64,000 nt of DNA from Spartobacteria bacterium (GCA_003169695.1 PNAS01000027.1:40488-104487); one strand, 5' to 3'; positions 10,394-64,000 are shown, counted from the stretch's first letter. The notes: generated by a model from the letters alone, not told the origin. A program made the numbers and translations.

Positions 10394-10497
10394 CTAGTTT
10401 CGTGGCGGCGGCGGCGGCACGGGTGGACAAAAGCGTTGCCCGTACGCGCGATTAGCGCTCGCCGCGGCGAGCGCCTTTATATTCGTTCGATGTTTCA

Positions 10498-11076: not shown

Positions 11077-11080
11077 GATG

Positions 11081-12406
11081 TTATTTGGGCAAGGCGTGCA
11101 CCAGGGCACGAAATTGATCGCCGCGATCGGCGTAGCTCTTGAACATGTCGAAGGAGGACGTGCCCGGAGAAAAAAGGACGACTTCACCGGGCTTTGCGAT
11201 CGCGTGCGCACGCTCGACTGCGTCGGCCAGCGAGTGCGCGATCTCGCAGGGAACCGCAGCCTTCCAATCCTGCGCGATCCGCTCGGCCAGCTCTCCGATC
11301 AGAACCGCGGCCCGAACTCTCTCGGAAACGAGCGGCCGCAGCGTTTCGAAGGTGAATCCCTTGTCCTTTCCGCCCGCGATCAAAATCACACTCTTGTTCT
11401 GCGCGAGCAGCCCCTTTTCGACTGCGTCGAGATTGGTCGCCTTGGAATCGTTGACGTAGGTCACGTCGCCGACTTCCCGCACGAATTCACACCGATGCGG
11501 CCGCGACTCGTACGCAGAGAGCGGCGGGATCATTTGCTCGAACGACAAGCCACGCGCGAGACCAACGGCGAGCGTGGCCATGATGTTTTCGATATTGTGC
11601 GAGCCGCGCAACTTCGTTTCCGCCATGCGGAGGACTGGCGCGTTTTGAAAAACGATCGATCCACCTTCGAGGCGGAAATCCGCGTGATCCGCGTAGGCGC
11701 TGAAGGTGACCGTCCCCGCCGCGATTTTCGGCAGCGTTTCGCCGGCATTTACAACCGCAACGTCGTCCGTCGTTTGATTTTCAAAAATGTGCAGCTTCGC
11801 CGCGCGATATTCTGCGACCGAGCGATAGCGATCGAGATGGTCGGGGGCAAAATTCAGCCAGACGCTGATCGAAGGCCGGAACGTCCGGATGGTTTCGAGC
11901 TGGAATGAGCTCACTTCCACGGTGAGCACGTCGAGGTCATGCTGTTCCAGCGCGACTTCGCAGAGCGGCTTGCCGATGTTGCCGCAAGCAATCGTGCGCT
12001 GTCCGCACGCATTCAACATCTGCGCGAGCAACTCCGTGGTGGTCGTCTTTCCGTTTGTGCCGGTAATGGCGATGACCGGCACGTTTACCGAACGCCAACC
12101 CAGCTCGAGCTCCCCCATCGTCTCTATGTTTCGCGACGAAAAATTCGTCGCGAGTGGTGAGATCGAATCGATGCCCGGACTCAGGACAACAAAATCATAC
12201 GCGGAGGAATCTTGCTCGGCCGCGGGACCGCAACGCACCTCCACTCCGCGCGCGCGCAGGTTTTCGATCGTAGATTTCAGTAAAGTTTTTTCATCGGCGC
12301 TGTCCAGAACGGTGACATCGGCGCCCTCACTTCGGAGCAAAAGCGCCGCGGCGGTCCCGCTCAATCCCGCTCCCAGCACCGCAACTTTTTTGCCCTGGTA
12401 TTTCAC
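11081..12406 (-). CDS. murD: UDP-N-acetylmuramoylalanine--D-glutamate ligase
   Basis: KKVAVLGAGLSGTAAA Rossmann motif, ITGTNGKTTT P-loop and dcw position. Confidence 0.95.
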   Translation of the reverse strand: MKYQGKKVAVLGAGLSGTAAALLLRSEGADVTVLDSADEKTLLKSTIENLRARGVEVRCGPAAEQDSSAYDFVVLSPGIDSISPLATNFSSRNIETMGELELGWRSVNVPVIAITGTNGKTTTTELLAQMLNACGQRTIACGNIGKPLCEVALEQHDLDVLTVEVSSFQLETIRTFRPSISVWLNFAPDHLDRYRSVAEYRAAKLHIFENQTTDDVAVVNAGETLPKIAAGTVTFSAYADHADFRLEGGSIVFQNAPVLRMAETKLRGSHNIENIMATLAVGLARGLSFEQMIPPLSAYESRPHRCEFVREVGDVTYVNDSKATNLDAVEKGLLAQNKSVILIAGGKDKGFTFETLRPLVSERVRAAVLIGELAERIAQDWKAAVPCEIAHSLADAVERAHAIAKPGEVVLFSPGTSSFDMFKSYADRGDQFRALVHALPK

Positions 12407-46058: not shown

Positions 46059-46718
46059 TTATTTCGGCTGTTCGCGAAAGAGATGGTTCGCGTCGGCGAG
46101 TAACTTTGTGACGGCATCCGGCGCCAGCGCGTCGTAGTAGCCGCGGATTGTGCCGTGCCGATCGACCAACACGACGCGAGTGCTGTGGACCGGCATCCCT
46201 GTTTCGTCACTGCCTTCCGAAACGGCGAGCTTAAATCCGTCGCGCGTTAGCGCATAGATTGCGGGGCGCGAGCCAGTCAGAAAATCCCAACGCTTTGGCT
46301 GGGCGTGCAACTTTTCCGCGTAAACGCGCAACACTTCCGGTGTATCTTTTTCCGGATCGACAGTGAAGGAAACGAGATGAATGTCGGTCTTTTCAAGCGG
46401 CTTCTGCAATTCGCTCATCCGGCTGCTGATGATGGGGCATGGACCCGGGCAACTCGTGAAAATGAAATCAGCGATCCAGATTTTTCCAGCCAATTGCGCG
46501 GAACCAAATGGCTCGGCGTCTTGATTAACGAGCTCGAAAGACGGGAGAGCTCCATAGGAGGAGATGGTGCGGTTGGTCAGCTGCTGCACCTGTGCCTGAC
46601 GCAACCAAAGGAGCAGGCCAGCGGTCACGATCGGGATGAGAATCAGAGTCGCCTTCCACGCCGTCGAACTTCTCGGCGTCGGGTGCGTCAGGGGGACGGT
46701 CGCGGTTTCCGATTTCAT
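46059..46718 (-). CDS. SCO1/SenC-family copper chaperone
   Basis: Thioredoxin-fold CxxxC motif FTSCPGPCP, a downstream conserved His and an N-terminal TM. Last gene of the oxidase operon. Confidence 0.88.
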   Translation of the reverse strand: MKSETATVPLTHPTPRSSTAWKATLILIPIVTAGLLLWLRQAQVQQLTNRTISSYGALPSFELVNQDAEPFGSAQLAGKIWIADFIFTSCPGPCPIISSRMSELQKPLEKTDIHLVSFTVDPEKDTPEVLRVYAEKLHAQPKRWDFLTGSRPAIYALTRDGFKLAVSEGSDETGMPVHSTRVVLVDRHGTIRGYYDALAPDAVTKLLADANHLFREQPK

Positions 46719-47632
46719 GATTTGGTCAGGACGAGTGCAATGAGAAGCAAGGGCAGGTAGACGATCGACGCAAGAAAGAGCTTACGCGCATCGGCGGCCA
46801 CTTGTGTGCGCAGAAATCGCATCGCAACGAATATGAACAATCCATTGAGGATCAGCTCAACCAAGAGGTAAATCGAACTGACGACACCGAGGAAAGCGGG
46901 GATCCCGCCGACGAGAAGGAGAACAATGCAAAAGAAAACGCTCTGGCTCGCGCTACGTGTTCCGGTCTCGTCCCCCCTCGACACCATCTGAAATCCAGCC
47001 CGAGCATAATCGTCCCGGTACATCCAGGCGATGGCGAAAAAGTGTGGCAATTGCCAGAAGAAGAGGATGGCGAAAAGACTCCACGCGCCGGGATCCAGTC
47101 GTCCGCGGGCGGCAGCCCAGCCAATCATCGGTGGCAACGCTCCTGGAATTGCACCCACCAGCGTGTTCGCCGTGCTGATGCGTTTCAACGGTGTGTAACC
47201 GAAAATGTAAATGGCTATCGTTAGCGCTGCGAGGACGGCGCTCAGCCCGTTGCATGCGATCGTGAGATACGTTACTCCGGCGATCGCCAGCAGGCTCCCG
47301 ACAATGAACGCATCCCGCGGGAGCATGCGACCGGCGGGAATTGGTCTCGTTCTTGTGCGCTGCATGAGCGCGTCGAGCCGGCGTTCCCACCATTGATTCA
47401 GCGCGGCAGCCCCAGCAGCGGCGAGTGCAGTCCCGCAGACGGCGTGGAAAAGCGCAACGTACTTGATTGAGCCAACCGCACCCAGATAAAAACCGACCGC
47501 AGTGGTGAGTAGAACCAAAAGAGTCAATCGCGCTTTGACGAGTTCCGCGAAATCCGAACCCACGCGCCGGTGCGTTTCACTTTCGATGACTGTTGACTCA
47601 ACATTTACCGGAGGAATCGCGGCAGTTTTCAT
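46715..47632 (-). CDS. ctaB: Protoheme IX farnesyltransferase (heme O synthase)
   Basis: UbiA-family polytopic protein (GAALNQWWERRLDALMQRTRTRP). Overlaps ctaA and sco1 by 4 nt each. Confidence 0.92.
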   Translation of the reverse strand: MKTAAIPPVNVESTVIESETHRRVGSDFAELVKARLTLLVLLTTAVGFYLGAVGSIKYVALFHAVCGTALAAAGAAALNQWWERRLDALMQRTRTRPIPAGRMLPRDAFIVGSLLAIAGVTYLTIACNGLSAVLAALTIAIYIFGYTPLKRISTANTLVGAIPGALPPMIGWAAARGRLDPGAWSLFAILFFWQLPHFFAIAWMYRDDYARAGFQMVSRGDETGTRSASQSVFFCIVLLLVGGIPAFLGVVSSIYLLVELILNGLFIFVAMRFLRTQVAADARKLFLASIVYLPLLLIALVLTKS

Positions 47633-48684
47633 GACGCGTGCAGGTTTTCGGAGACGAGATAGCTGTGCTGCGTCGGCACCGCTTCCGAGTTTTGCGAGAG
47701 CCGCAGGGAGATTGTTGAAATGGCGACGCCCAAGGCAAGCATCGTTGCGCCTATCGCGACGTGAGCCGTCGCAATGTCAGCCGCTTTGTTGCTCCAGATA
47801 ACCCATGCCCCCAATGTGATCTGACAGGCCAGGAGCAGGAACCACGCGTCTGACAATCGCGCGAGTGGCGTGTCGCGCAGTTCCGCCGCGCGTGCCCGGA
47901 TCAAGCACGCGACCACGCCGGTGGCAATGACCAAAGCGAGAAAACGGTGAGCCATTTGCAACCAGATGTGAAACGGCGCAACCTCCGATAAAGCGCGTGC
48001 GTTCCGCCATGCGTTAATCTCGGCCAACCTCGCGGTCGTCAAAGTAGGAATGGCCTGACCGTAGGCGGTGGGAAAATCAAGAATCGCGAGATCACGATGT
48101 TCGTGCCGCATCGTCGCGCCGAGGGCAAGCTGCGCGTAGATCACGCTCGTTGTAAGAATGGCGACGCGCGCCAAAGATTGCGCGGCGCCGGATGGGAAAC
48201 CTTTAGCGGAAATACGCTGCCATAATCGCGACGTCGCAAGTGTGATGACGATGAGCAATCCAAAAAAACCCTGCGCAAGGCAGGCATGAAAGACTCCGAT
48301 CTCATCCTTCAACAAGGTAACGCGCAATCCGCCGAGCACGCCTTGCAAAATCACCGCACCGAGCGCTGCAAAACCCAGATTGCGGAGCCAGCGGCGACTT
48401 TCTCGGCGCCACAACCAGATGGCCAGAATGATCGTGAGAAAACCGACGGTCGAAGCAACCAGCCGATGGATGTGCTCGAAAAATATTCCGCCGACCCATT
48501 TCGAAATAGGAAAGAGAAACATGTTGTAACCGAAAGTCGTTGGCCAATCGGGAACAGCGAGACCAACTCCTTTGCTCGTGACCATGCCGCCGCTGCAAAT
48601 AAGAAAGAGCGTGGCGATGGCCGTGAAGAAGGCGAAACGATGAAGCCATCTTCTATAGGGGCGGTCTATGACCGTCGCAGGCAT
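47629..48684 (-). CDS. ctaA: Heme A synthase (COX15/CtaA)
   Basis: Polytopic with paired His motifs (EHIHRLVAS, AHRFLA, HVAIGA). ATG 48684 chosen; the ORF is open to TTG 48711. Confidence 0.88.
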   Translation of the reverse strand: MPATVIDRPYRRWLHRFAFFTAIATLFLICSGGMVTSKGVGLAVPDWPTTFGYNMFLFPISKWVGGIFFEHIHRLVASTVGFLTIILAIWLWRRESRRWLRNLGFAALGAVILQGVLGGLRVTLLKDEIGVFHACLAQGFFGLLIVITLATSRLWQRISAKGFPSGAAQSLARVAILTTSVIYAQLALGATMRHEHRDLAILDFPTAYGQAIPTLTTARLAEINAWRNARALSEVAPFHIWLQMAHRFLALVIATGVVACLIRARAAELRDTPLARLSDAWFLLLACQITLGAWVIWSNKAADIATAHVAIGATMLALGVAISTISLRLSQNSEAVPTQHSYLVSENLHAS

Positions 48685-48746
48685 CGAGGTTGGTTCGGCC
48701 ACGTAACGCAAAAGTGCAAGAATTCGGTGGTCATAGACCGCCCCTA
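48656..48746. repeat. Perfect 18-bp inverted repeat bracketing the ctaA start
   Basis: TAGGGGCGGTCTATGACC (48656-48673) and its exact reverse complement (48729-48746), with a 55-nt spacer. The outer arm has a GTAG head on the minus strand. Confidence 0.85.
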
Positions 48747-48777
48747 CCGGAAGAAATTCAGGCGCAAGCCGGCAAAC

Positions 48778-49701
48778 CTAATGTCCGCTGGGGCTCGGAG
48801 CTTTCGGGGGCTCGCCGGGTTTGGCGTCGGGCTGGCCGCTCGGGTTTGCGGTTTTGGGAGCGCCGGGTGGCGCCACGGTTCCGGGTGTCGGACCGACTGG
48901 AGGTTCAACGGGCGGTCGCTCGGTGGGCGCTGGCGCCGTTTGCGATCCGGAGAGTTCCACACGTTCCTTCAACCAGGCTTGATAATCCGCCGGATTGTCT
49001 ACGACAAGCATCCCTTTCATGCTGTAATGACCGAGTCCGCAAAGCTGGCCACAGACCACTTCGTAGCTGCCGGTCTTGATCGGTTTAAACCACATCGGAA
49101 TGATCTGGCCGGGAATCGCATCCTGTGCCATCCGCATGTGCGGGAGAGCGAAATTGTGGATCACGTCCTTCGAGGAAAGCTCGATAATGACTGGTCGATC
49201 GACTGGCACATGCAGTTCGCCAAGCACCACGATATCATCCTTCGACGCCGGGTCTTTTGAGTCGAGGCCAAGCGGATTGGAATTGGAAACGAGCGCGATA
49301 TCGCGTCGGCCGAACTGGCCGTCCGGTCCGGGCAAATGAAAATTCCAGTTAAACTGTTGACCAATCGCGTGGACGAGAATCGCGTCTTTGTCTTCCGGAA
49401 ACTGATTGACTCGCTTCGCCCAAAGCGGGATGGCGAAACCGATGAGCAGGACGGCTTCGATCAGCACCACGGCAAATTCCAAATGCGTGGAAATACCGCT
49501 CTTCACACCTTCGTGATCCGCGACCGGATGCCGGCCTTTGCGGAAACGCAGGAGCACGTAAATGAAAAATGCCGACCAGCCAAGAAAGAGCGCGCCCATG
49601 AACCAATGGCTGAATTCGATGATATGATCGATTTGATAGCCGTGCTCGGAAGCATTCGGCGGCAGCCCGATTAGTTCGTTGAGCAGCGCGAGCCTAGTCA
49701 T
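48778..49701 (-). CDS. ctaC: Cytochrome c oxidase subunit II (CuA cupredoxin; no fused cytochrome c)
   Basis: Two N-terminal TM helices. CuA ligands DVIHNF and CGQLCGLGHYSM. P/A-rich C-terminal tail. Confidence 0.9.
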   Translation of the reverse strand: MTRLALLNELIGLPPNASEHGYQIDHIIEFSHWFMGALFLGWSAFFIYVLLRFRKGRHPVADHEGVKSGISTHLEFAVVLIEAVLLIGFAIPLWAKRVNQFPEDKDAILVHAIGQQFNWNFHLPGPDGQFGRRDIALVSNSNPLGLDSKDPASKDDIVVLGELHVPVDRPVIIELSSKDVIHNFALPHMRMAQDAIPGQIIPMWFKPIKTGSYEVVCGQLCGLGHYSMKGMLVVDNPADYQAWLKERVELSGSQTAPAPTERPPVEPPVGPTPGTVAPPGAPKTANPSGQPDAKPGEPPKAPSPSGH

Positions 49702-49954
49702 ATTGATCCAAATCCTCGTTGGTCAATTCTTGATGCGGCTCGAGCGGCGTGTGGGCATGCCGCCAGAGATGGAAACTGAAGGCTCCGACTCCGCCCATGA
49801 CAGACATGACGACCCCCATCAGAACCCAAATCGCGACTGCCATATGCTCGGTGGTCTTGCCATCTTTCGCGCCATAACAAACCGAGCAGGCGAGCATTTG
49901 CCCCATTTGCGAACCGAGAAAGAGCGTAAACGCAACGAGCAACTTCGTTCTCAT
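49694..49954 (-). CDS. Small membrane protein with CSVCYG motif (86 aa)
   Basis: The ATG overlaps the stop of the upstream small ORF (ATGA), and its end overlaps the coxII start by 8 nt. N-terminal hydrophobic segment ending in LACSVCYG, plus a second TM. Confidence 0.55.
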   Translation of the reverse strand: MRTKLLVAFTLFLGSQMGQMLACSVCYGAKDGKTTEHMAVAIWVLMGVVMSVMGGVGAFSFHLWRHAHTPLEPHQELTNEDLDQYD

Positions 49955-50160
49955 GTGATAATCCGAAGGCGTTTCATTTTCCGGTAAAACCAAACGCCGT
50001 AAGCGATAAGCGCCAGTGCGGCGACAAACGAACAAATCGCGCCGGCTCGAAAAGCCGGGGCGCCCTCCATGCGCTCGACCCAGATACACCACGCGCCCAC
50101 ACCGAGCGCCAGCAGCGTCGAGACGGTGATGAAAACGATATGGAATCCTTTCAGCGACAT
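49951..50160 (-). CDS. Small two-TM membrane protein (69 aa)
   Basis: The ATG directly abuts the coxIV stop. Two clear hydrophobic helices and a basic C-terminus. Confidence 0.55.
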   Translation of the reverse strand: MSLKGFHIVFITVSTLLALGVGAWCIWVERMEGAPAFRAGAICSFVAALALIAYGVWFYRKMKRLRIIT

Positions 50161-50529
50161 TTAGCGAGTGATTGGATCGTACCAGGCCAGATAGATGAGC
50201 CAAAAAAGTCCAGAGACGAAGAAGAAGGTGAAGATCAGGATGCGATAGATCATCCTCTTCTCGGAGGAGAGATGCATGAAGATCGCCGCGACGAGGCCTG
50301 CCTTAAAGGTGGCCACGAGCAGCGCGACCGCGACATTGGCCTTTTGCGTTCCGAAATTGACGTAGGAGAGAAAAACGGTGATGGCGGTAAAGAGGAGGAG
50401 CGTCCCGCCGACCATGAGGTAACCGCGGATGTGTTTCGAAACATCGTGGGCGGCGTGCTCGTCGTGCGAAGCATCTCCGGTGGTCGCGGCGGCTGTCTCG
50501 GCGATGAGCGGTTCGTGCGATTCGTCCAT
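50161..50529 (-). CDS. ctaF: Cytochrome c oxidase subunit IV (bacterial CtaF/CoxIV family)
   Basis: 122 aa, three TM segments. Pattern HDVSKHIRGYLMVGGTLLLFTAITV...VALLVATFKAGLVAAIFMHL. Confidence 0.8.
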   Translation of the reverse strand: MDESHEPLIAETAAATTGDASHDEHAAHDVSKHIRGYLMVGGTLLLFTAITVFLSYVNFGTQKANVAVALLVATFKAGLVAAIFMHLSSEKRMIYRILIFTFFFVSGLFWLIYLAWYDPITR

Positions 50530-50532
50530 TGA

Positions 50533-51408
50533 TTAAAGTAGGTAAAAAAGCGGAAAAACGAAAATCCAGACCAAGTCTACAAAGTGCCAGAACAAGCCGG
50601 CGACCTCAACTCGATTGGCGAGATGCTCGGGGTTGCGCTTGTAAAGTTTTGTCCCGACGGGCAACCAGAGGTAGGTGAAGACAATCACGCCACCCAGCAC
50701 GTGCAATCCGTGAAGGCCAGTGATCGTGAAATAGCTCGCGAAATAGGCGCTGTGCTTGGGCAGAAACATGTTCGCGTACTCCACGTCAGCCTTCTCGATT
50801 TTCGCGAGCTTTTCTGTCGGCGGGACGTAGAGGAAATGCGGGCGATCCATTAGCGGATTGGTCGGATCCGCGTTCACTGGATCGAGCGCGATCTCGTACT
50901 CCTTCACGTTCTCGTCGTGGAGCGCCTCGTGATTATGCAAATGACCGCTGATCTCGGTCCGCGGCGCAAGTCCCTTCTCGGCGAGGTGGTGGTTCCCAAG
51001 ATAGGGCTCATATTTCTCAAGCGCGTCTTTCTTGATGAAGGCGCCGAAGTGCTCGAATTTTTGGGGCCACTCGTAGATGAGCTTTACTCCCAGAAAGGTC
51101 ACGCCGCACAAGATCGTGACGAGCATGTACCACCAGTAGGCGCGGAAGCGGCGCATCTTGAGCGACGCCCACGCCATGACGACCGTGACGGAAGACGCGA
51201 TTAGAATCGCGGTGTTCATCGTGCCGACCGGCACGTTCAATAATCCATGGGGCCACGCGCCCGGGGCAGCATCGAGCCTTAGAAAAACGTAAGCGGAGAA
51301 GAGTCCGCCGAAGAGCATGACTTCCGAAGCGAGGAAAAGCCAGATGCCAACCTTGGCATTCCAGAGGCCCGTATCCGGGCGGGCGGTGACCGTGTAGGGA
51401 ATTTCCAT
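50533..51408 (-). CDS. ctaE: Cytochrome c oxidase subunit III (5-TM type) with large hydrophilic insertion
   Basis: WLFLASEVMLFGGLFSAY, FTITGLHGLHVLGG, FWHFVDLVWIFVF. ATG 51408 lies 19 nt after the coxI stop. The longer ORF overlaps coxI. Confidence 0.88.
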   Translation of the reverse strand: MEIPYTVTARPDTGLWNAKVGIWLFLASEVMLFGGLFSAYVFLRLDAAPGAWPHGLLNVPVGTMNTAILIASSVTVVMAWASLKMRRFRAYWWYMLVTILCGVTFLGVKLIYEWPQKFEHFGAFIKKDALEKYEPYLGNHHLAEKGLAPRTEISGHLHNHEALHDENVKEYEIALDPVNADPTNPLMDRPHFLYVPPTEKLAKIEKADVEYANMFLPKHSAYFASYFTITGLHGLHVLGGVIVFTYLWLPVGTKLYKRNPEHLANRVEVAGLFWHFVDLVWIFVFPLFYLL

Positions 51409-51427
51409 GTCGCGGTGTCCTTGGCGA

Positions 51428-53314
51428 TTAATGCACCGCGGCCGCGGCTTCGTACGCTTTGCGGTCGCTTTCGCGCATCGGTTCGCTTTGCATCGTAAAG
51501 TCGTTCTCGCGGCCGGGGAGGCTGTATTCGTATGGGCCACGATAAACAGTAGGCGTCGTGGCGAAATTCCCGTGCGGCGGCGGGGAAGGCGCGGTCCATT
51601 CGAGGGTGGTGGCCTCCCAGGGATTATCGTTCACTTTCTTCCCATGCTTCATGCTCCAGAAGAAATTGATGATGAACGGAATCTGCGCCAGGCCCATGAC
51701 CCAGGCTGCAATCGAGATCGGCGTGTTCCATTGGAACCCGCTCAAGCCCCAGACTTTTTCGCCGGCCAGCGTCCAGCCCTGCCCGCCGTCATACCAGCGC
51801 CGGTGCATGCCGAGCATTCCCTGTAGAAACATCGGCAAGAAGATCATGTTCATGCAGATGAGCGAGGGCCAAAAATGCACTTTCCCCCAGAATTCATTCA
51901 TCATTCGACCAGTCGCTTTCGGGAACCAAAAATAAATTCCAGCGAAGACGGCGAAGATCGTTCCTGGAGCGACGATGTAATGAAAATGCGCGATCACGTA
52001 GTAGGTGTCGTGCAGATAAAGATCGGCCGAATTAAAGGCCAGCGGGATTCCAGTCAAGCCGCCAATGCCGAACATTGGCAAAAACGCCGTCGCGAAGAGC
52101 ATCGGGACATTGAACCTGATCGATCCGCCCCAGAGCGAAATGAAGAACGCGCTCAAGATGATAACCGATGGAATGGAAATGATCATCGTGGTCGTCTGGA
52201 AAAAAGCGCTCACGACCGAGCCCATCCCCGTCAGCCACATGTGATGCGCCCAGACGATGAAAGAGAGGAATCCCAGGACGAGCGCCGCGAAGACGAGCGA
52301 CTTGTAACCCCAGAGCGGCTTGCGCGTGTTGTTCGCGATGATCTCGGCGACGATCCCCATGCCCGGAAGGATGAGCACGTAGACTTCGGGGTGGCCGAGG
52401 AACCAAAACAAATGCTGCCAGAGCAATGGGCTGCCACCGCCGCTGTTATGCAACGGTACGCCGTTGATGATCAACCCGCTCGGCATGAAAAAGCTCGTCC
52501 CGGCCACGCGGTCCATCAGTTGCATCACGATTGCGGATTCGAGTGGCGGAAACGCCAGCAGAAGCAAAAACGCGGTCACGAATTGCGCCCAGACGAAGAA
52601 GGGTAAACGCATCCAGGTCATCCCTTTGGCGCGAAGCTGAATGATGGTCGCGATGAAATTGACCGCGCCGAGGAGCGATGATGTAATCAGCAAAATGAAG
52701 CCGATCAGCCAGAGCGTCTGGCCGTTGAAAATTGGATCGTAAGCTGGCCCCTTATCGGCGATGACCGCGAGCGGCGTGTAGGAGGTCCAGCCGCCTTTCG
52801 CGGCGCCACCAGGAACGAAAAAGCTGATGAGCATGACAACGCCACCGAAAAAGAAAGCCTGGTAGCTCGCCATATTGATTTTCGGGAAGGTCATGTCCGG
52901 TGCGCCGATCTGGAGAGGCACGACGAAATTTCCGAAGGCGGCGAATGCGATCGGCACGATGCCGAGAAAGATCATGATCGTGCCGTGCATTGCGCCTAAC
53001 GAGTTGTAAAACTCGGGCGTCATCTTGCCGTCCGGCATGCTGCCTGGTCCGAAGACGTGACCGATCCAATTCCCAATCACAGGCAGAGCCTGGCCCGGGT
53101 AAGCCAACTGCCAACGCATCAGCATCATGAGCGAAAAACCGAAGAACAGGAAAATCAATCCGGTAATGCCGTACTGGATCCCGATGACCTTGTGATCGGT
53201 CGAGATAATGTACTTCCGCCAGAATGGAAGTTCGTGGTGGTCGTGCCCGGCATCGTGATGATGCGGATCGTGTTGGGCGTGCGGGTGAGGAGCGAGGCCA
53301 GAGGAAGCGTCCAT
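51428..53314 (-). CDS. ctaD: Cytochrome c oxidase subunit I (A-family haem-copper oxidase)
   Basis: All canonical ligand motifs are present: AMHGTIMIF, WFLGHPEVYVLILP, VWAHHMW and HDTYYVIAHFHYIV. Confidence 0.95.
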   Translation of the reverse strand: MDASSGLAPHPHAQHDPHHHDAGHDHHELPFWRKYIISTDHKVIGIQYGITGLIFLFFGFSLMMLMRWQLAYPGQALPVIGNWIGHVFGPGSMPDGKMTPEFYNSLGAMHGTIMIFLGIVPIAFAAFGNFVVPLQIGAPDMTFPKINMASYQAFFFGGVVMLISFFVPGGAAKGGWTSYTPLAVIADKGPAYDPIFNGQTLWLIGFILLITSSLLGAVNFIATIIQLRAKGMTWMRLPFFVWAQFVTAFLLLLAFPPLESAIVMQLMDRVAGTSFFMPSGLIINGVPLHNSGGGSPLLWQHLFWFLGHPEVYVLILPGMGIVAEIIANNTRKPLWGYKSLVFAALVLGFLSFIVWAHHMWLTGMGSVVSAFFQTTTMIISIPSVIILSAFFISLWGGSIRFNVPMLFATAFLPMFGIGGLTGIPLAFNSADLYLHDTYYVIAHFHYIVAPGTIFAVFAGIYFWFPKATGRMMNEFWGKVHFWPSLICMNMIFLPMFLQGMLGMHRRWYDGGQGWTLAGEKVWGLSGFQWNTPISIAAWVMGLAQIPFIINFFWSMKHGKKVNDNPWEATTLEWTAPSPPPHGNFATTPTVYRGPYEYSLPGRENDFTMQSEPMRESDRKAYEAAAAVH

Positions 53315-57510: not shown

Positions 57511-58296
57511 CTACGCTTTTGGAGGAGCTGGCGCGGCGCTGGCTTGGGGGTTCGGCGGCTCGCCTGGTTTCGTGGCAGGCGCCTCGCCGCCTGGAAGATT
57601 TGCGTCCTCTGGAACGGCTTTCAGGTCGGGCTCGGTAAAGGAATCAGGATGGTTCGCAAGCTCTTTACGAAGGGCAGCGATGGCTTCCGGTGTCACAGGC
57701 CCGCCCTTGTTCCCCCACTCCTGGCGGATGAAGGTGAGAACGTCGGAGATCTTGGCATCGGTCAGCGTTTTCTCCCATGGCTGCATCACTGCGGAGCCGA
57801 ACGCCATTCCTTTGACAGTGAGCGGGCCTTGCAGGCCTTTCAGCACGATCATGCCTAGCCGACGGGTGCCACCATTCACGTATTCTGACCCAGCCAGCGG
57901 CGGATATTGGCCGGCGACACCAGTGCCGCTCATCTGATGACAGGTGGCGCAATTCGCCGAGAAAATCTTTTTGCCGCGGTCGGCTGGTGAGAGCTCGGCT
58001 GTTTGAGCTCCACCGCCCGGGCCGGTCGCTCCAGATTTGGTCGGACGCGGTGCGCCGCCGAACGGATCAAGACCATCGCCGCTGAAATTTCCGGAATAGC
58101 GCCCGAGGTAAGCGCCGCCAAAAAAGATGGCAAGCCCGTAGATCGCAATCAACCAGAGTGAGAGAGGCTCGAGTCCGACGGCCGGTTCCCGCTTTTCGCG
58201 CTGGATGGCGGCGTGAACCTGATGGACATCCTCGGTTTCACCATAGTCCATCCCCTGCCGGACCCTGCGCTCTGGAGCGGGTGAGTTCTCGTTCAT
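57511..58296 (-). CDS. Membrane-anchored monohaem class I cytochrome c
   Basis: One TM (LSLWLIAIYGLAIFFGGAYL), CATCH haem motif with a downstream Met region (AFGSAVMQPW) and a P-rich tail. ATG 58296 overlaps the ccoO-like stop (ATGA). Confidence 0.85.
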   Translation of the reverse strand: MNENSPAPERRVRQGMDYGETEDVHQVHAAIQREKREPAVGLEPLSLWLIAIYGLAIFFGGAYLGRYSGNFSGDGLDPFGGAPRPTKSGATGPGGGAQTAELSPADRGKKIFSANCATCHQMSGTGVAGQYPPLAGSEYVNGGTRRLGMIVLKGLQGPLTVKGMAFGSAVMQPWEKTLTDAKISDVLTFIRQEWGNKGGPVTPEAIAALRKELANHPDSFTEPDLKAVPEDANLPGGEAPATKPGEPPNPQASAAPAPPKA

Positions 58297-59345
58297 TTCG
58301 CCTCCTTCGTCGGCGCTGGCGCTGGTGATGCGGAGGAGGCCGCCGGTGAAGGAGCGGGTGCAGATGAGGGTGGCGCGGCTGTCGCTTTCACTTCTTTCAA
58401 GGCGTGTGATTGGTCGAGCGACATCAGATACGCGACGAGACATTTCGCATCGTAGGTCGGCACCACTTCCCAACCTGCCGGAACTGCATCTCGCTCACCC
58501 AACTTCAAAGCATCGGCCGCCCGTTCGCCGCTGATGGGTCGTTTCTCATAGAGGAAATGATAAGCCGGCATGTTGGAATCCAGGACAAGGCTGCGCGGAC
58601 TGTAAAGGTGACGATGATGCCACGCTGCAGTGTAGGGAGGCGGCGTGCCATTGGCGGTGGCGGTTGTGCCGGCCAGGGTCGCGGCATTCGCTGCGGGATT
58701 CGGAGAAGCTGCGGTCATAGCAGGACTTACCGAAGCAGGAGCGGGAGATGTTACGGCGGCGACCTTTGCGGGTGAAATGGCCGGCGAAGCAGCGGCAACA
58801 ACCGGCGATGGAGAAGGCGCGGCAGTAGTTGCGGCGGAAGTTGCCGGAGGCGCGGACGCCGCGGGCGCCGGAGGTGTTGACGGAGAAGCTCCGGGCGCGG
58901 GATTGCTCGCAGGTGATGCTTGAGGTGTCGTCGGGCCAGCCGGGGTTGGGTTCCCGGCAGGCGAGGCGTTTTCCTCCTCAACTGGCGCGCGTTTTCCAAT
59001 GTTCGACAAGTCCGGTCCCAACCTCATTTTGCCCAGCATAATGGGGCGTTCGAAGAGATAATCACGCGGCGCGCTGCGACGCTCACCCCATTTGCGATCG
59101 ATGTCCGAAGCCGCGTAATCGGCGCGCACTTGCTGGCTATGACAGTAAACGCAGCCATTCGCGGCATAAATTCGACGGCCACGGTCGGCCATTCCCGACT
59201 TCGGCGCGGGATAAGGGTCATTTCCGTCTTCGTCCATTTGCGGATCGAGGTGCCCGATTTGGTAATTCGGAATGAGGATCAGCCCCGTCCATGAGAAAGC
59301 GAACGTGCCGAAGATCCCCAGAAAGAGCGCTACGATCCCCTTCAT
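58293..59345 (-). CDS. CcoO-like monohaem subunit (cbb3 oxidase subunit II family) with ~115-aa low-complexity insertion
   Basis: N-terminal TM, GCVYCHSQQVR, GKMRLGPDLSNIG ... WHHRHLYSPRSLVLDSNMPAY. An A/P/S/T-rich insert lies between the two conserved halves. Confidence 0.85.
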   Translation of the reverse strand: MKGIVALFLGIFGTFAFSWTGLILIPNYQIGHLDPQMDEDGNDPYPAPKSGMADRGRRIYAANGCVYCHSQQVRADYAASDIDRKWGERRSAPRDYLFERPIMLGKMRLGPDLSNIGKRAPVEEENASPAGNPTPAGPTTPQASPASNPAPGASPSTPPAPAASAPPATSAATTAAPSPSPVVAAASPAISPAKVAAVTSPAPASVSPAMTAASPNPAANAATLAGTTATANGTPPPYTAAWHHRHLYSPRSLVLDSNMPAYHFLYEKRPISGERAADALKLGERDAVPAGWEVVPTYDAKCLVAYLMSLDQSHALKEVKATAAPPSSAPAPSPAASSASPAPAPTKEAK

Positions 59346-60850
59346 AGGCGCGCCTCGAGGGCCTCCCCTTCCTGTGGATTGAGGAATGTCGGAACACTCG
59401 CCGTCCGGCCCAAACCAAGAAGCATCAGGCCGAAGTGAAATGCGAAAACGAAATGCGCGACGGTCAAAAGCAAACCGGAAACGCTGCGGCCCCGCAGATA
59501 CGGCAGAATCGACTCAGTGCTCTCACTGAAAGCAATCGACGGATCATGCATGCTGGCTCCCTGCGAAAGACCACCGGCGAGCAGCATCAGCACCATCAAA
59601 CCGACACCATACGTCGAGGACCAGAAGTGGAGTTTAATCAGCGAGGCGTAACGCCATTCACGCCCGACCAATCGCGGCACGATGTAATACATCGAGCCGA
59701 ACATGATCATGGTAAAGAACGCGTACAATCCCATGTGAGAATAGGCGATGCTTGCCTCGGTGAAGTGCACATAACCGGCAACCGAACGGAGTGAGAGCAA
59801 CACGCCGACCAGGCTGAAGACGGTGTACGAAATCGCGCCGAAGACCGTGAAGCGCAGCGTCGGGCTATAACGAAGCAGACCAAAGTACCCGCGCATCGTC
59901 ATGTGATGATTCAGCCCGACGGTCGCCACCGGGATGATGGTGAGAATCGTGGCTGCGATACTGGCGGTGATCATCCACGCGGGAAACGGTCCGTCGACTA
60001 GCCGTTGCATTCCGGTCCAGCTCGCGAAAAGCGCATAAGTCCAAAATCCGATTGCCGCCAGATGATAACTGTAGACCGGGCGCCCGATCACTTTCGGAAT
60101 CATGTAATACGCGGTGCCGAGTCCGATCGCGCCGAACCAGAGGAAAAGAAGATTATTTGCGAACCACCACGTCACCGCTTCCTGCATCACACCCTGTAGA
60201 GGAACCAGGAAGAGCATGACTTGCGTCGCGCCGTAGACCCACGGGAACCAGAGAAAGGCGCCGAGCAAATACCATTGCGTGATGTAAATGTGGTCGCCGC
60301 GGCGAAAGCGGAACATGAGCATCGCCCAGGAAACGACCAGTGAGTAGGCGACGAAGAGAACGATGGCGGCGTAAGGCGGAAACTCGAGCCATTCATATCC
60401 GGTGCTGTCGCCAGCCAGAATTCCACCCACTCCAAGAAGAACGCCGAGATTCCAGAACGCAGCGCCCCCAATAAGCAGAAGTGGATGGCGCAAAGTGGTG
60501 CGACATAAACGAGCCATCAGCCAGATCGCAGTGCCAATGCCGGCCATCGAGGCCCAACCGTAAACCATCACGTTCATGTGCGCGGGCCGGACGCGACCCC
60601 AGGTGAGAAAGCTGACATTCGCGAGCAAGTCTGGAGCGTGGAGTTTGAAGGAGGTGAATCCGGCCAGCAATGTGCCAAGCAGGAGCCAGACGATCGCGGA
60701 ACCGTAGAAGAACAAAACGGGCAGGCGGGTGGACGCGTCGATCAACGCGCGTTCGACTTGTTCGACCTCACGGATCGTTACGTCCGACTCCGTGCTCGTT
60801 GCAACCGGAACGGTCGTGGGCGGTGTTAGAGGTATGTCAGCGGAATTCAT
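59342..60850 (-). CDS. CcoN-like polytopic protein (cbb3 subunit I family) lacking the binuclear-centre ligands
   Basis: Collinear with CcoN: WGRVRPAHMNVMVYGW, EWLEFPPYAAIV, WWFANNLLFLWFGAIGLGTAYYMIPK, RPVYSYHLAAIGFW, HFTEASIAYSHMGLYAF and MYYIVPRL. ATG 60850; the longer ORF overlaps the upstream gene. Confidence 0.85.
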   Translation of the reverse strand: MNSADIPLTPPTTVPVATSTESDVTIREVEQVERALIDASTRLPVLFFYGSAIVWLLLGTLLAGFTSFKLHAPDLLANVSFLTWGRVRPAHMNVMVYGWASMAGIGTAIWLMARLCRTTLRHPLLLIGGAAFWNLGVLLGVGGILAGDSTGYEWLEFPPYAAIVLFVAYSLVVSWAMLMFRFRRGDHIYITQWYLLGAFLWFPWVYGATQVMLFLVPLQGVMQEAVTWWFANNLLFLWFGAIGLGTAYYMIPKVIGRPVYSYHLAAIGFWTYALFASWTGMQRLVDGPFPAWMITASIAATILTIIPVATVGLNHHMTMRGYFGLLRYSPTLRFTVFGAISYTVFSLVGVLLSLRSVAGYVHFTEASIAYSHMGLYAFFTMIMFGSMYYIVPRLVGREWRYASLIKLHFWSSTYGVGLMVLMLLAGGLSQGASMHDPSIAFSESTESILPYLRGRSVSGLLLTVAHFVFAFHFGLMLLGLGRTASVPTFLNPQEGEALEARL

Positions 60851-60878
60851 CCGAAGAAATTTAGGTGTTGAAGAGCGC

Positions 60879-61514
60879 TCATGGCGTTTTCGCGCGGACC
60901 GGTAATGGAGTGGCCGGCGCGGAAGGTGAAGGCGATGCGGAAGATGACACTGGCGCCTTAGCCTCGGCGGAAGGTGGAGAAGCGGCTGGAGCGTTAGACG
61001 GACCCGGCTGTGTTCCAGGAGGAGCCGGCCGCGGATTGATGGCACCCGCGGGTTGATTCCGACTCTCGGAATTCGGGCCGGTAATGGAAGTGGGCTTCGG
61101 TGTTCCGCTCGCGCTGGCGGTTGGTGACGGCGCGGGAGGCGCGGTAGCTGGCGCGGCGCCTTGGGGAGATGGATTCGCTGCCGGTGTTGCAATCGGGTTT
61201 GCCGGCGCGGGTGTTTTCTGGGACAGCTCGGCCAGGGTTAACTTCATCGCGTCAGTGATCGGGATACGCACCACCCCTTTGTTCTTATCGACCCAGGCAT
61301 ATGTTGTGAGCGCCTTGGTTGTTTCGTCACGCGTGGCTTGCAATTTCTCGGCACGGACCTTGGCCCGTTTCTTCTCATAGCTGTTTCCGCGCGGCGATGC
61401 GCCAATGACGACCAGCGCCAGCAATCCGAAGAAGGCGAAAAGAAGCACCACTCCGATCCAAGTCGAAAACATGGAGCGTGGCTGGAATTTTTGCGATGGG
61501 TCGTCGTGCGTCAC
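60879..61514 (-). CDS. N-terminally anchored protein with short conserved-looking domain and long P/A/S-rich tail
   Basis: TM WIGVVLLFAFFGLLALVVIG, then ...LTTYAWVDKNKGVVRIPITDAMKLTLAEL, then ~110 aa of low complexity. Sits between actF and the ccoN-like gene, 2 nt after the actF stop. Confidence 0.65.
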   Translation of the reverse strand: MTHDDPSQKFQPRSMFSTWIGVVLLFAFFGLLALVVIGASPRGNSYEKKRAKVRAEKLQATRDETTKALTTYAWVDKNKGVVRIPITDAMKLTLAELSQKTPAPANPIATPAANPSPQGAAPATAPPAPSPTASASGTPKPTSITGPNSESRNQPAGAINPRPAPPGTQPGPSNAPAASPPSAEAKAPVSSSASPSPSAPATPLPVRAKTP

Positions 61515-61516
61515 GG

Positions 61517-62719
61517 CTAATTGGTTGTGCGGAGAGATTCAAGGAGGCGGGGATCGCGATTCGGAAAGAGCGACGTCTTGGCGAGAATTCGCAGATAGAA
61601 AAACCCGAGCGTTGCGCCAATTGCGATCAGAGACACGAAATCCCAAATGCTCAGGTGCAGACCGACACCATGCAGCGCTGGCAGAATTACGATATAGATG
61701 TCGACGGCCTGCATGAAGACCAGCCAGCCCGCAATCAGGCAAAGCTGCCGGGCCTTCCTCTTTGGGCTGCGCACAAGCAGAAGGATAAAGGGCACAAAGA
61801 ACCGGCCGATCACCAGGAACAGGCTCAGGCTGTTCCACGATTCGGTATTTCGCCGGATAAAATATTCCGTCTCTTCCGGCATATTGGCGTACCAGATGAG
61901 CATGTATTGGCTGAACCCGATGTAGGCCCAGAAGACGACGAACGAGAGCATCCACTTACCCATGATGTGGTAATGCTCCATCGTGACGATGTCTTTCAAG
62001 TATCCCGCGTTCCGCAAAGCGGTGATGACCAGAACCAGCAAAGACATCGAGCTGCCCGCGGCGCCCGCGAAAATGTAAACGCCCCACATGGTCGAGAACC
62101 AGTGGTAATCCAGCCCTAGGAGCCAATCATAGGCACCGAAAGTGAGCGAGAGCGCAAAAAGCGGCAGGGCGGTGAAAGCGACCCTACGCATCTTCAAGGT
62201 ATACGCGGGATTGCCGTCGCGATCCTGGCGGACCGAGAAACGCCGCAAGAGAAATGCCGCGCCGGTAAAAAATGCGAAATAAAAAATCGCGCGGACGAGA
62301 AAGAAGTGCCAATTCAGGTAGGCGCGCTTGCTGTCGAGAATGGGATCATGTCCGGGAGCGACGTTCATCCACTCATACAGATGATGGCGGAAAATCAGCA
62401 CCGGGATGAAAAACACCGCCATGACCGGTATGAGCATGGCCAGATTTTCCAGTTGTCGCCGCACTACGACCGACCACTCTGCGTCCGTCACATGATGCAC
62501 GATGATCCAGAAAAAGCAGCCGGCCAGGAGCGTAAAGAAAAAGGCAAAGGCAAAAAGCCACGAGAAACTGAATTGGTGGCGATTAACGGAAGCTCCAACG
62601 GCACAAAGCGCCAGGCTGAACAAGCCAACTACAGCCAACAGCAACGACAAACCCGCAAAACGGTTTGTTTCGAAATATTCGCCCTCGGGCACCGGGACGA
62701 AATCAGAACGCTCGCTCAT
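61517..62719 (-). CDS. actF: Alternative Complex III subunit ActF (NrfD-like quinol-interacting membrane subunit)
   Basis: About 10 TM segments with ActC/ActF-family patterns (HHVTDAEWSVVVRRQLE, KRAYLNWHFFLVRAIFYF, MLIWYANMPEET). ATG 62719 overlaps the actE stop (ATGA). The longer ORF (to 63115) overlaps actE. Confidence 0.85.
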   Translation of the reverse strand: MSERSDFVPVPEGEYFETNRFAGLSLLLAVVGLFSLALCAVGASVNRHQFSFSWLFAFAFFFTLLAGCFFWIIVHHVTDAEWSVVVRRQLENLAMLIPVMAVFFIPVLIFRHHLYEWMNVAPGHDPILDSKRAYLNWHFFLVRAIFYFAFFTGAAFLLRRFSVRQDRDGNPAYTLKMRRVAFTALPLFALSLTFGAYDWLLGLDYHWFSTMWGVYIFAGAAGSSMSLLVLVITALRNAGYLKDIVTMEHYHIMGKWMLSFVVFWAYIGFSQYMLIWYANMPEETEYFIRRNTESWNSLSLFLVIGRFFVPFILLLVRSPKRKARQLCLIAGWLVFMQAVDIYIVILPALHGVGLHLSIWDFVSLIAIGATLGFFYLRILAKTSLFPNRDPRLLESLRTTN

Positions 62720-63453
62720 TTTTTTGGCGCCTCCGGCTTCGGCTCGGCTTTGGTTTCCGCCGGTTTGTTCAGTTCTGCGCGGCGTTCCGGAGGCACATCC
62801 GCTTCCGTGGCGTTTTGGCTGCGTTGCAACGCGCGGAGATAGGCGATGATTGCCCACCGATCGATGACCATCACGTTCGGTCCGTAGGGCAGCATCGTGT
62901 TCTTGCCGTTGGTAATCGTGTTGAAGATTTCGCCGTCGGCCATTTTTCGAATCCGCTCGTCCTGCAACGAGACGACGGTCGCAAGGCCGTATTGCTTCGT
63001 GATTCCGTCCCCGGCTGCTGTCATCCCGTGACAAACGGCGCAATTGATATTGAACCGCTGTTTCCCCCGCTCCATCAAATCGCCCGTCAACGTCATCGGC
63101 AACCCGGTTCCCCAATTCGCCCCCATCTTGCCAGTGTCGTAATAATCTGTTCCTTCGCTGAACCCGAGACGGGGTTGCGCATTCATCTCGGCAGCGACCG
63201 GCGCCGCACCCGGGCTCGGCTCGCTCGCCTGCGACATTTCGTAACCCATCGGAACTGTGCCGGCGACCGGGACGCGAGCACCACGCCCGTCAGCAAAAAA
63301 TCCGAGCGGCGCTTGCGCACGGACTTTCGGTTGGCGCACCATGTCGGGAAAAACTTCAATGGGCGAACCAGTGCTCTTTTGCCCACGCAAGCCGAAGACG
63401 GCGACGATGGCGACGCCGGTCAGCAGAAAAATGAGGAAGAAGCCGCGGAGCAT
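62716..63453 (-). CDS. actE: Alternative Complex III monohaem cytochrome c subunit ActE
   Basis: N-terminal anchor MLRGFFLIFLLTGVAIVAVFG, CAVCH haem motif and ...TNGKNTMLPYGP...RWAIIAYLRALQRSQ. ATG 63453 lies 2 nt after the actD stop. Confidence 0.85.
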   Translation of the reverse strand: MLRGFFLIFLLTGVAIVAVFGLRGQKSTGSPIEVFPDMVRQPKVRAQAPLGFFADGRGARVPVAGTVPMGYEMSQASEPSPGAAPVAAEMNAQPRLGFSEGTDYYDTGKMGANWGTGLPMTLTGDLMERGKQRFNINCAVCHGMTAAGDGITKQYGLATVVSLQDERIRKMADGEIFNTITNGKNTMLPYGPNVMVIDRWAIIAYLRALQRSQNATEADVPPERRAELNKPAETKAEPKPEAPKK

Positions 63454-63455
63454 AT

Positions 63456-64000
63456 TTAGTCTTCGTGGATTATCGTCACATGCTGGCCGCCGCTTTGTTC
63501 CAGAAGTTCGCGTGCCTCCAATTCGGTAAAGCGGGGATCCCGCGCTTCGATCACCAGGAAAAATCCATCGTTGGTCGCACGGCTGAACCGTTGCCAATTG
63601 AAAACCGGGTGATACCAGCGTGGCAGGCCGTTCATGAGGAGCATCGCGAAGAACGCGGAGAAGGCGGAGAAAAGAATAGTGAGCTCAAACATGATCGGGA
63701 AAAACGCCGGCACCGTCGCCCAGTTGGTCGGTTTTCCGTGCACAATCAGCGGGTAAATTAACCAGGATGGCCCGAACTCCAGGACCGCCGCCGTAAGCAA
63801 TCCCGTCGTCCCGCCAGCGAGCACAACGGCGCTGAGCCACGACTTGCCGAGCCCCATCGCTTCATCCATGCCGTGAATCGGAAATGGGGAATGCACGTCC
63901 CAGCGCTTGAACCCTGCGTCGCGCACGCGTTTCGCTGCTTCGTAGAGCGCGGTGGCGCTTGGGTATTCCGCGCCCATTCCGTAGACTTTGTTTCCGGACG
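63456..64000 (-). CDS. actD: Alternative Complex III membrane subunit ActD (DUF3341), 5' end probably outside window
   Basis: ALYEAAKRVRDAGFKRWDVHSPFPIHGMDEAMGL followed by two TM segments. The reading frame stays open upstream of ATG 63977 to the window edge (..NKVYGMGAEY). Confidence 0.8.
   Translation of the reverse strand, partial: SGNKVYGMGAEYPSATALYEAAKRVRDAGFKRWDVHSPFPIHGMDEAMGLGKSWLSAVVLAGGTTGLLTAAVLEFGPSWLIYPLIVHGKPTNWATVPAFFPIMFELTILFSAFSAFFAMLLMNGLPRWYHPVFNWQRFSRATNDGFFLVIEARDPRFTELEARELLEQSGGQHVTIIHED

Follow-up and report, generated by a model that had tools for sequence, protein, structure and literature searches.

CcoN*, a CcoN-derived protein encoded in a verrucomicrobial alternative complex III operon, lacks the catalytic-centre ligands of its parent oxidase and may serve as a scaffold for c-type cytochromes

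Introduction

Six histidines are conserved in the haem-copper oxidases (HCOs), and the HCO classifier of Sousa et al. 2011 discarded sequences that lack them (PMC3084760). Murali et al. 2024 described gNOR as the first HCO with a replaced active-site histidine, conservation being complete elsewhere (PMC11214002). Here we examine CcoN*, a protein derived from CcoN, the catalytic subunit of cbb3 oxidases, which is encoded in an alternative complex III (ACIII) operon within a 64,000-nucleotide stretch of DNA from Spartobacteria bacterium (GCA_003169695.1 PNAS01000027.1:40488-104487; the whole stretch is called the window below) and in which all ligands of the haem b3-CuB centre are substituted.

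One relative is the CcoN of the Pseudomonas stutzeri cbb3 oxidase (3mk7_A), which shares with CcoN* a fold of 12 transmembrane (TM) helices, a collinear alignment, the low-spin haem ligands and a CcoO partner, but has three CuB histidines, a haem b3 histidine and Tyr251 that are substituted in CcoN*. The canonical ACIII-linked CcoN proteins of Verrucomicrobiota (P0315 of Terrimicrobiaceae, P0377 of Verrucomicrobiales and P0374) occupy the same operon slot, are followed by the same FixO and cytochrome c genes, and carry the same double-histidine (HH) pair in TM8; unlike CcoN*, they have the full set of all seven centre and haem residues, T215/S240, a CcoS-like gene and often a copper P-type ATPase. 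Fully degenerate CcoN proteins (Pedosphaera P0340, Verrucomicrobiales P0133) are, like CcoN*, annotated as 'cbb3 subunit I', belong to an ACIII operon, and have neither binuclear ligands nor an accompanying CcoS-like or Cu-ATPase gene, but unlike CcoN* they are also without both low-spin haem histidines.

Enzyme folds that lost their catalytic metal ligands and stayed in respiratory assemblies are familiar from other superfamilies: NuoD/Nqo4 of complex I goes back to the large subunit of [NiFe]-hydrogenases but does not have the Ni-Fe cysteines, and the bc1 core proteins derive from mitochondrial processing peptidases (MPP). As in CcoN*, fold and contacts were kept; these families are unrelated to it, however, and their assembly has been structurally shown, whereas that of CcoN* is suggested by its operon.

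Within the HCOs, a metal-ligand histidine is replaced by Asp in gNOR (PMC11214002), and Tyr occurs at haem ligands in the J family (bioRxiv 10.1101/592808). In these B-family proteins one or two ligands are changed and catalysis is thought to persist, whereas CcoN*, whose parent is of the C-family, has lost four centre histidines and the cross-link tyrosine. The type of operon concerned, ACIII with cbb3, is known in verrucomicrobial methanotrophs and Opitutaceae, according to the passage of PMC8498564 that cites Refojo 2010. Considering the evidence below, we propose, with a probability of roughly one half, that CcoN* is a pseudo-oxidase that acts as a scaffold for c-type cytochromes on ACIII and leaves O2 reduction to a nearby aa3 oxidase.

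Results

CcoN* has substitutions at every position of the catalytic centre

An earlier note on this stretch, made from the sequence alone, had aligned CcoN* to P. stutzeri CcoN and concluded that the catalytic centre is lost. Comparing CcoN* with PDB chains using phmmer, we found 3mk7_A to be the best match (E=1.7e-40, 25% identity), and the printed alignment, from which the 3mk7_A residue numbers used here were counted (CcoN* keeps its own query numbering), reproduced every pairing given there. Both ligands of the low-spin haem b are kept, H60 as H91 and H347 as H372. The CuB ligands H207 and H257/H258 are substituted by N232 and Q282/R283, the helix-7 tyrosine of the CuB-His cross-link, Y251, by A276, and the proximal haem b3 ligand, H345, by Y370, while G290/M291 correspond to the HH pair, H315/H316. 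The metal-ligand roles of the residues are those established for the 3mk7 structure and for the six conserved HCO histidines (PMC3084760), and they are corroborated by the same columns in 93 canonical verrucomicrobial CcoN, which read H/H/Y/H/H/H/H in 100% of cases.

Could the histidines be present but shifted by a faulty alignment? CcoN* aligned in one common register to five independent PDB CcoN sequences, and flanking motifs agree between CcoN* and CcoN (WW(F/Y)xHN, WxGxHH and TxxHxH). An AlphaFold2 model built with 68 homologues has twelve long helices (mean confidence pLDDT 86.8, pTM 0.87), and Foldseek superposed it on 3mk7_A with TM-scores of 0.85/0.91 and a root-mean-square deviation of 2.0 A over 456 columns; cbb3 structures were its nearest matches, and NorB was weaker (E 1e-10, 15% identity). 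Moreover, canonical relatives 48-56% identical to CcoN* have histidines in exactly these columns. The register, the motifs, the fold match and the canonical relatives together rule out an alignment artefact, to which we assign a negligible probability, and HMMER and the model alike place N232, A276, Q282/R283 and Y370 at the CuB, tyrosine and b3 positions, as had been proposed.

Pfam COX1 (PF00115) matches CcoN* from end to end with 194.9 bits, and the CcoN equivalog model TIGR00780 gives 163.9 bits, below its cutoff of 583.15. CcoN* did not pass as a NorB either, its columns for the FeB and high-spin-haem ligands holding N, Q, R and Y. As judged from its sequence, CcoN* is unable to build a haem b3-CuB centre, which agrees with the earlier prediction that it has no such centre for O2 or NO chemistry; the low-spin haem b is probably still bound.

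The recently described nitric oxide reductase (NOR) families are B-family relatives with CuA-type partners, among which at most one active-site histidine is changed, and that in gNOR only, while 'N2O red' is related to cNOR (PMC11214002). Membership of CcoN* in gNOR, nNOR, the other NOR families or 'N2O red' is ruled out by its C-family parentage and its CcoO partner.

The gene is under purifying selection and the changes concentrate on the catalytic site

A scan of a one-genome-per-species collection gave 330 stretches that encode a relative. We kept the best 80 of the 330 (the query clade below), which come from Chthoniobacterales / Candidatus Udaeobacter metagenome-assembled genomes and are 77-92% identical to CcoN*; residue counts refer to 80 sequences, namely 79 loci and the query, with L078 left out (wrong open reading frame extracted). 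The open reading frame (ORF) is intact in 79/79 correctly extracted orthologues, and the median pairwise ratio of non-synonymous to synonymous change (dN/dS, Nei-Gojobori) is 0.09 at dS ~1.4, in line with the earlier view of an intact gene. N232, F236, G240, A265, Q282, D286, H315 and H316 are invariant (80/80), R283 is present in 79/80, position 370 is Y in 75 and F in 4, and position 276 is Ala or Ser. The replacement residues persist across synonymous codons (N232, AAC 43/AAT 37; Q282, CAG 46/CAA 34; Y370, TAT 50/TAC 26; four Arg codons at R283), and the gene is under purifying selection, which the earlier note had proposed to test.

To what extent the change is confined to the active site can be read from 191 columns that are at least 90% conserved in the 93 canonical verrucomicrobial CcoN. 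The query clade departs from them at only 26, leaving 165/191 unchanged, the GRxRPxH region included, and all five binuclear-centre columns (H207, Y251, H257, H258, H345) are among the 26 (hypergeometric P ~3e-5, by our own arithmetic). The same 26 include T215->G, S240->A, G236F, P241S, G286D and M304T. Because so few conserved columns have changed and all five centre residues are among them, the loss falls, by this count, selectively on the catalytic site, the rest of the protein being well preserved. CcoN* combines the two marks of a pseudoenzyme, homology to an enzyme without its essential residues and purifying selection; non-catalysis itself is a prediction from the sequence.

That CcoN* might be a decaying relic of a disused cbb3 oxidase is suggested by its missing catalytic ligands and assembly genes and by the erosion of haem b ligands in some lineages (see below). 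This is hard to reconcile with intact ORFs and strong constraint at saturated dS, with a median amino acid identity to the window of 80% for CcoN*, which lies between the values of ActF (71%) and CoxI (87%) from these genomes, with the abundance of relatives (330 genome stretches; 1722 clusters at 90% identity with E<=1e-10), and with the preserved translational coupling of CcoN* and CcoO*. We regard a relic as very improbable, and a pseudogene is ruled out by the dN/dS and ORF integrity of the orthologues.

CcoN* is part of an ACIII operon from which adjacent assembly genes have gone

In the window, at least seven tightly packed minus-strand genes encode ActD, ActE, ActF, a small TM protein, CcoN*, the CcoO-like subunit CcoO* and a cytochrome c (Table 1). 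ActD/ActE/ActF are contiguous, with overlapping or abutting codons, and the ActE/ActF, CcoN*/CcoO* and CcoO*/cytochrome c junctions are ATGA overlaps, which bears out the translational coupling to a CcoO-like gene claimed earlier. The claimed link to ACIII likewise holds, with ActD-ActE-ActF directly upstream in one operon and the order kept in other loci: ActA-C fall past the window edge and are intact in a syntenic complete-chromosome locus (L003), and ActF occurs in 70/80 query-clade loci (77 counting all loci examined). This arrangement suggests that CcoN* is physically associated with ACIII. A tblastn search of the window with canonical CcoN sequences gave no second CcoN.

The haem c partners are intact throughout the clade, with invariant CxxCH (79/79) and S.MP (71/71) motifs in CcoO* and CxxCH (69/69) in the cytochrome c. 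CcoO* has a Pro/Ala/Ser/Thr-rich insert of ~110 aa (residues ~121-235) between its CxxCH half and its Met-ligand half, which canonical FixO (203-240 aa) is without; similar PA-rich tails occur in the downstream cytochrome c, the 211-aa protein and CoxII.

The single-TM protein between ActF and CcoN is present in 10/11 comparison loci and in nearly all query-clade loci, and had no match in L088, which is not linked to ACIII. Elsewhere it is ~120 aa long (L081 9602-9985, L083 9427-9786, L087 9445-9825). It shares the motif Y.W.D...G.VR.PI..AM and had no match in Pfam or NCBIfam, and we consider it a candidate uncharacterised subunit of the ACIII-cbb3 assembly.

Two further genes distinguish canonical loci. 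Directly upstream of every canonical or near-canonical CcoN lies a CcoS/FixS-like ORF of 60-73 aa, with a TM helix and the motif IFDxEEPxGxxTD(xFP), which matches the Pfam family of this cbb3 maturation protein (FixS/CcoS) at 14-27 bits. This ORF was not found in the window (60851 to 60878) nor in the fully degenerate loci, and 17 query-clade loci have a TM-less remnant of it, M..DLI.RMK...KNAEMIFD.EEPIG.PTDLVMPRRRWFR. A P-type ATPase (E1-E2_ATPase), resembling the copper pump CcoI, follows the cytochrome c gene in L083/84 and L088; it was found in 0/80 query-clade loci and in none of L081, L085 and L086. Since the adjacent CcoS-like and Cu-ATPase genes have gone while the c haem partners are kept, the metal centre appears to have been really abandoned.

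Ligand loss took place within one operon slot

CcoN* is not an isolated oddity; it belongs with a large radiation of degenerate-ligand CcoN derivatives, the named members of which are all verrucomicrobial. When the full library of representatives clustered at 50% identity was searched with HMMER, 2402 matched, 477 of them at E<=1e-30, and the top 150 representatives scored 238-520 bits, against ~142 bits for proteobacterial CcoN. Every relative with a source name was from Verrucomicrobiota. Only 4/126 full-length representatives have the full ligand set, and in 65/126 none of the six positions holds a histidine. The ligand columns are otherwise highly variable: the H60 column holds A in 60, F in 19 and H in 14, the H347 column Q in 35 and H in 15, and the H258 column is basic in some other degenerate lineages (R in 21 and K in 6 of the 126). 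In these data the fully degenerate radiation amounts to more than 120 clusters at 50% identity.

A profile of the degenerate sequences retrieves mainly canonical verrucomicrobial CcoN with all ligands, together with intermediates (HNYHH..HH, HHSHH..HH, HHSQH..QQ). Identity to CcoN* is 48-56% for the canonical verrucomicrobial proteins and falls to 37-42% for the fully degenerate proteins, and in a crude neighbour-joining tree, with ligand columns removed, the query clade nests in the canonical clade beside Terrimicrobiaceae and Verrucomicrobiales, with the fully degenerate proteins outside. This tree position suggests that the query clade lost its ligands separately and at a later time.

To compare the genomic context of these forms, contigs were fetched by exact-protein look-up, giving 9 independent loci (10 if L084, which duplicates the L083 locus, is included). 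In these and in L003 the order is ActA-B-C-D-E-F, small TM protein, CcoN, FixO, cytochrome c; the canonical P0298 (L088) is not ACIII-linked. The CcoN slot is occupied by a canonical protein in L083/84 (P0374) and L087 (P0315), by a form with a single substitution in L089 (P0330, H207N) and L090 (P0345, Y251S), by a partly degenerate form in L085 (P0363, Y251S+H257Q+H345Q+H347Q), and by fully degenerate forms in L081 (P0340, Pedosphaera), L086 (P0371) and L091 (P0350). Further intermediates, also in this ACIII operon, are P0312 and P0324 (H207S; Y251V+H257A). As canonical and degenerate CcoN share one slot, the ligands were lost in situ, within an ancestral operon that combined ACIII and cbb3.

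The haem b site is kept in most orthologues and lost in some

H91 is present in 77/80 and H372 in 79/80 sequences of the query clade, each encoded by both His codons. L039 (CcoN* at 10001-11494) has lost both histidines (Q91 and Q372), one is lost in L058 (Q91), in L068 (Y91) and in the P0366 group (P0366, P0378-P0380; H372Y), and the orthologues with losses are ~75-80% identical to CcoN*. In terms of its ligand residues, the haem b site is eroding inside the query clade. The bis-His haem b that the earlier note predicted is thus supported for CcoN* itself, in which both ligands are present, and fails as a stable hallmark of the group, given these losses and that in P0340.

One possible function is that of an obligatory haem b relay or store, in which the bis-His haem b would take electrons from the haem c of CcoO* as a path out of ACIII. 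The near-invariance of both histidines, an intact CcoO* as the natural haem b donor, and the unchanged surroundings of the haem, the GRxRPxH region among them, argue for it. It would not, however, explain the orthologues that have lost one or both histidines, nor P0340 and P0371, which sit in the same operon slot without either, nor the finding that the two haem b histidines do not co-occur beyond chance among 122 non-canonical representatives (2/7/8/105, Fisher p=0.16). No acceptor past haem b is evident, and the CcoS-like maturation gene is absent. In addition, HCO haem b sits close to the periplasmic face, so that it cannot carry electrons across the membrane, which makes the transmembrane electron relay suggested in the earlier note implausible. 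Overall we consider an obligatory relay unlikely, though it is the alternative that deserves most weight. As some orthologues and related lineages have lost the histidines while the gene and its partners were kept, whatever keeps the gene does not generally need haem b.

A second possibility is that the pocket has been rebuilt into a different catalytic site, with a Tyr370-ligated haem in the b3 pocket under Asn232/Gln282/Arg283 whose chemistry would be something other than the reduction of O2 or NO and might, for example, be the reduction of peroxide with electrons from cytochrome c. Such a site would resemble that of catalases and peroxidases, and the constancy of N232, Q282, R283 and D286, the retention of Y370 in 75/80 across TAT/TAC, the J-family precedent of Tyr for a haem-ligand His, and the recurrence of basic residues in the H258 column of degenerate lineages could all be taken in its favour. 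Phe at 370 in four orthologues speaks against it, as do the variability of these columns in the wider radiation, which shares no motif, and the loss of presumed proton-delivering KC-channel residues; G236->F and other bulky changes beside the old site further suggest that the pocket has been filled. A rebuilt site seems to us improbable.

The HH pair is ancestral, and presumed lower proton-channel residues are kept

The KC proton channel reportedly comprises T215, Y223, S240, N289 and Y317 (Buschmann 2010; Ahn 2014). By this list, T215 is replaced by G and S240 by A in CcoN*, while Y223, N289 and Y317 are kept; canonical verrucomicrobial CcoN have T215 in 86/93 and S240 in 88/93.

The HH pair, which the earlier note had listed as non-canonical, occurs in canonical, fully liganded relatives (pattern HHYHHHHHH in 90/~120 sequences), and the GLNHHMTM motif is common to canonical verrucomicrobial CcoN, so that the pair is not novel to CcoN*. 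In the model, TM8 spans residues 291-319 and is preceded by a periplasmic loop (285-290), which would put the pair at the cytoplasmic end of TM8, beside the KC-channel Asn and far from the old centre. A role of HH315/316 as a substitute metal site is ruled out by this location and by its presence in the 90 fully liganded relatives.

The retained lower KC positions (Y248, N314 and Y342 of CcoN*), together with the HH pair on the cytoplasmic side, are what one might expect of a module that conducts protons or ions and equips ACIII with a route for translocation by reusing HCO channels without their redox chemistry, and proton translocation by ACIII is debated (PMC8498564). The presumed upper-channel residues, however, were lost together with the centre (T215->G, S240->A, Y251->A/S), we identified no new, conserved series of acidic or basic residues spanning the membrane, and a driving redox element inside CcoN* would be missing, all of which make such a module quite improbable. 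Of the functions considered in the earlier note, a scaffold subunit attached to ACIII suits the evidence best.

A canonical aa3 oxidase lies downstream

About 4 kb beyond the ACIII-CcoN* genes, on the same strand, the window encodes a canonical A-family (aa3) oxidase (Table 1), and in the 36 query-clade loci with measured spacing CoxI lies 2.8-9 kb downstream of CcoN*. This aa3 oxidase is the likely O2-reducing partner. Its gene order is unusual, and the CuA motif of CoxII, CGQLCGLGHYSM, has Gln in the usual Glu place.

In two Terrimicrobiaceae-like loci (L087 12937-13791, L089 12918-13769) the gene immediately after that of the cbb3-type cytochrome c is COX2, for a CuA subunit II, and there is no COX1 in the vicinity, which hints at cross-talk of the ACIII-cbb3 module with an A-family oxidase even beside a canonical CcoN.

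Table 1. Positions of the genes discussed, in the window and in comparison loci.
Feature	Locus	Coordinates	Strand	Description and basis
CcoN*	window	59342..60850	(-)	CcoN-derived 12-TM protein, 502 aa; ORF, Pfam, HMMER alignment, AlphaFold
CcoO*	window	58293..59345	(-)	CcoO/FixO-like monohaem cytochrome c, 350 aa, CVYCH and SNMPAY Met motif; PF02433
Cytochrome c	window	57511..58296	(-)	membrane-anchored, monohaem, CcoP-like, CATCH; 261 aa from ATG overlapping CcoO* stop
Single-TM protein	window	60879..61514	(-)	conserved, 211 aa, no Pfam match
ActF-like	window	61517..62719	(-)	ACIII membrane subunit, 400 aa from ATG overlapping ActE stop
ActE-like	window	62716..63453	(-)	monohaem cytochrome c of ACIII, CAVCH; Pfam, junction reading
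ActD	window	63456..63977	(-)	subunit of ACIII; PF11821, 189 bits
aa3 operon	window	46059..53314	(-)	canonical A-family; CoxI, CoxIII, CoxIV, small ORF, CoxII, CtaA, CtaB, SCO1
CoxI	window	51428..53314	(-)	
CoxIII	window	50533..51540	(-)	
CoxIV	window	50161..50529	(-)	
CoxII	window	48778..49701	(-)	CuA ligands present, no CxxCH / cytochrome c domain
CcoS-like ORF	L083	9801-10004		
CcoS-like ORF	L087	9822-10004		
CcoS-like ORF	L088	9783-10004		
CcoS-like ORF	L089	9822-10004		
CcoS-like ORF	L090	9633-9821		
CcoS-like ORF	L085	9701-9907		
CcoS remnant (example)	L075	9843-9977		
CcoS remnant (example)	L070	9780-9914		
CcoS remnant (example)	L050	9840-9935		
P-type ATPase	L083	12742-15492		
P-type ATPase	L088	12860-15649		

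Discussion

Combining these results, we outline a model in which CcoN* would be the in-place orthologue of a subunit that was catalytic in an ancestral cbb3 oxidase linked to ACIII, having lost the haem b3-CuB centre, the cross-link Tyr and the upper part of the proton-uptake channel. Its 12-helix platform, maintained by purifying selection, would hold CcoO-type and CcoP-type c cytochromes beside ACIII. Electrons would pass from quinol through ACIII (the ActA/ActE haems) to the c haems that CcoO* and the anchored cytochrome c carry on tethers, from there to CuA in subunit II of the nearby aa3 oxidase, a subunit without a fused cytochrome c domain, and finally to O2, with the haem b of CcoN* serving as a structural or off-pathway cofactor. 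The Pro/Ala-rich linkers of CcoO* and of the cytochrome c would suit a tethered-shuttle design. Rhodobacter cytochrome cy, which shuttles between complex III and oxidase, is built in this way, from a TM anchor, a flexible Ala/Pro-rich linker and a cytochrome c domain; the 261-aa cytochrome c of the window and CcoO* share its layout, but here the shuttles would sit on a former oxidase subunit of 12 TM helices instead of moving freely.

Several observations weigh against this model. The haem b histidines are kept in ~96% of orthologues through synonymous change, and the haem may thus matter here; and the invariance of N232/Q282/R283/D286 exceeds what a cavity filler needs and could mark a rebuilt site. 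As for the oxidase partner, CoxI was detectable in only 41/80 query-clade loci, many of which are incomplete, and no aa3 operon was found within 10 kb in the Pedosphaera locus (L081).

A broader proposal, which we put forward tentatively and at somewhat less than even odds, is that in Verrucomicrobiota the subunit responsible for catalysis in an ACIII-coupled cbb3 oxidase has repeatedly and independently become a structural one, either metal-free or with haem b only. There would then be a widespread and so far unrecognised pseudo-oxidase family of hundreds of clusters, the globally abundant Udaeobacter group of soils included, that forms an obligate part of a new ACIII-cytochrome c supercomplex feeding aa3. 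If this is true, the natural intermediates, with anything from a single ligand to the full set missing, trace step by step how the active site of an oxidase was taken apart.

As to why such proteins have escaped notice, sequences that lack the histidines are discarded in surveys, and a large HCO branch has therefore probably been filtered from view. The literature open to search held no description of a ligand-less CcoN, nor of any family with this ligand pattern, in agreement with the earlier note; many subscription papers lay outside the search, and an earlier mention is possible. Meanwhile, "cbb3-type cytochrome c oxidase subunit I" is the name under which NCBI and JGI list these proteins, and ccoN commonly serves as a marker of high-affinity, microaerobic respiration. 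One study of Acidobacteria saw no expression of 'cbb3' genes at nanomolar O2 and raised the question whether the enzyme had lost its function (PMC8407424).

For Udaeobacter/Chthoniobacterales, Pedosphaera and other abundant soil Verrucomicrobiota, inference of microaerobic respiration from ccoN would be wrong. The series that runs in one operon slot from canonical CcoN through single-ligand variants and CcoN*, with its centre lost and haem b kept, to ligand-free proteins offers a natural experiment in how a respiratory enzyme becomes a structural subunit, and in what roles an HCO scaffold may have beyond catalysis. Within that series, CcoN* would provide a testable handle on how electrons are handed over from ACIII to the oxidase.

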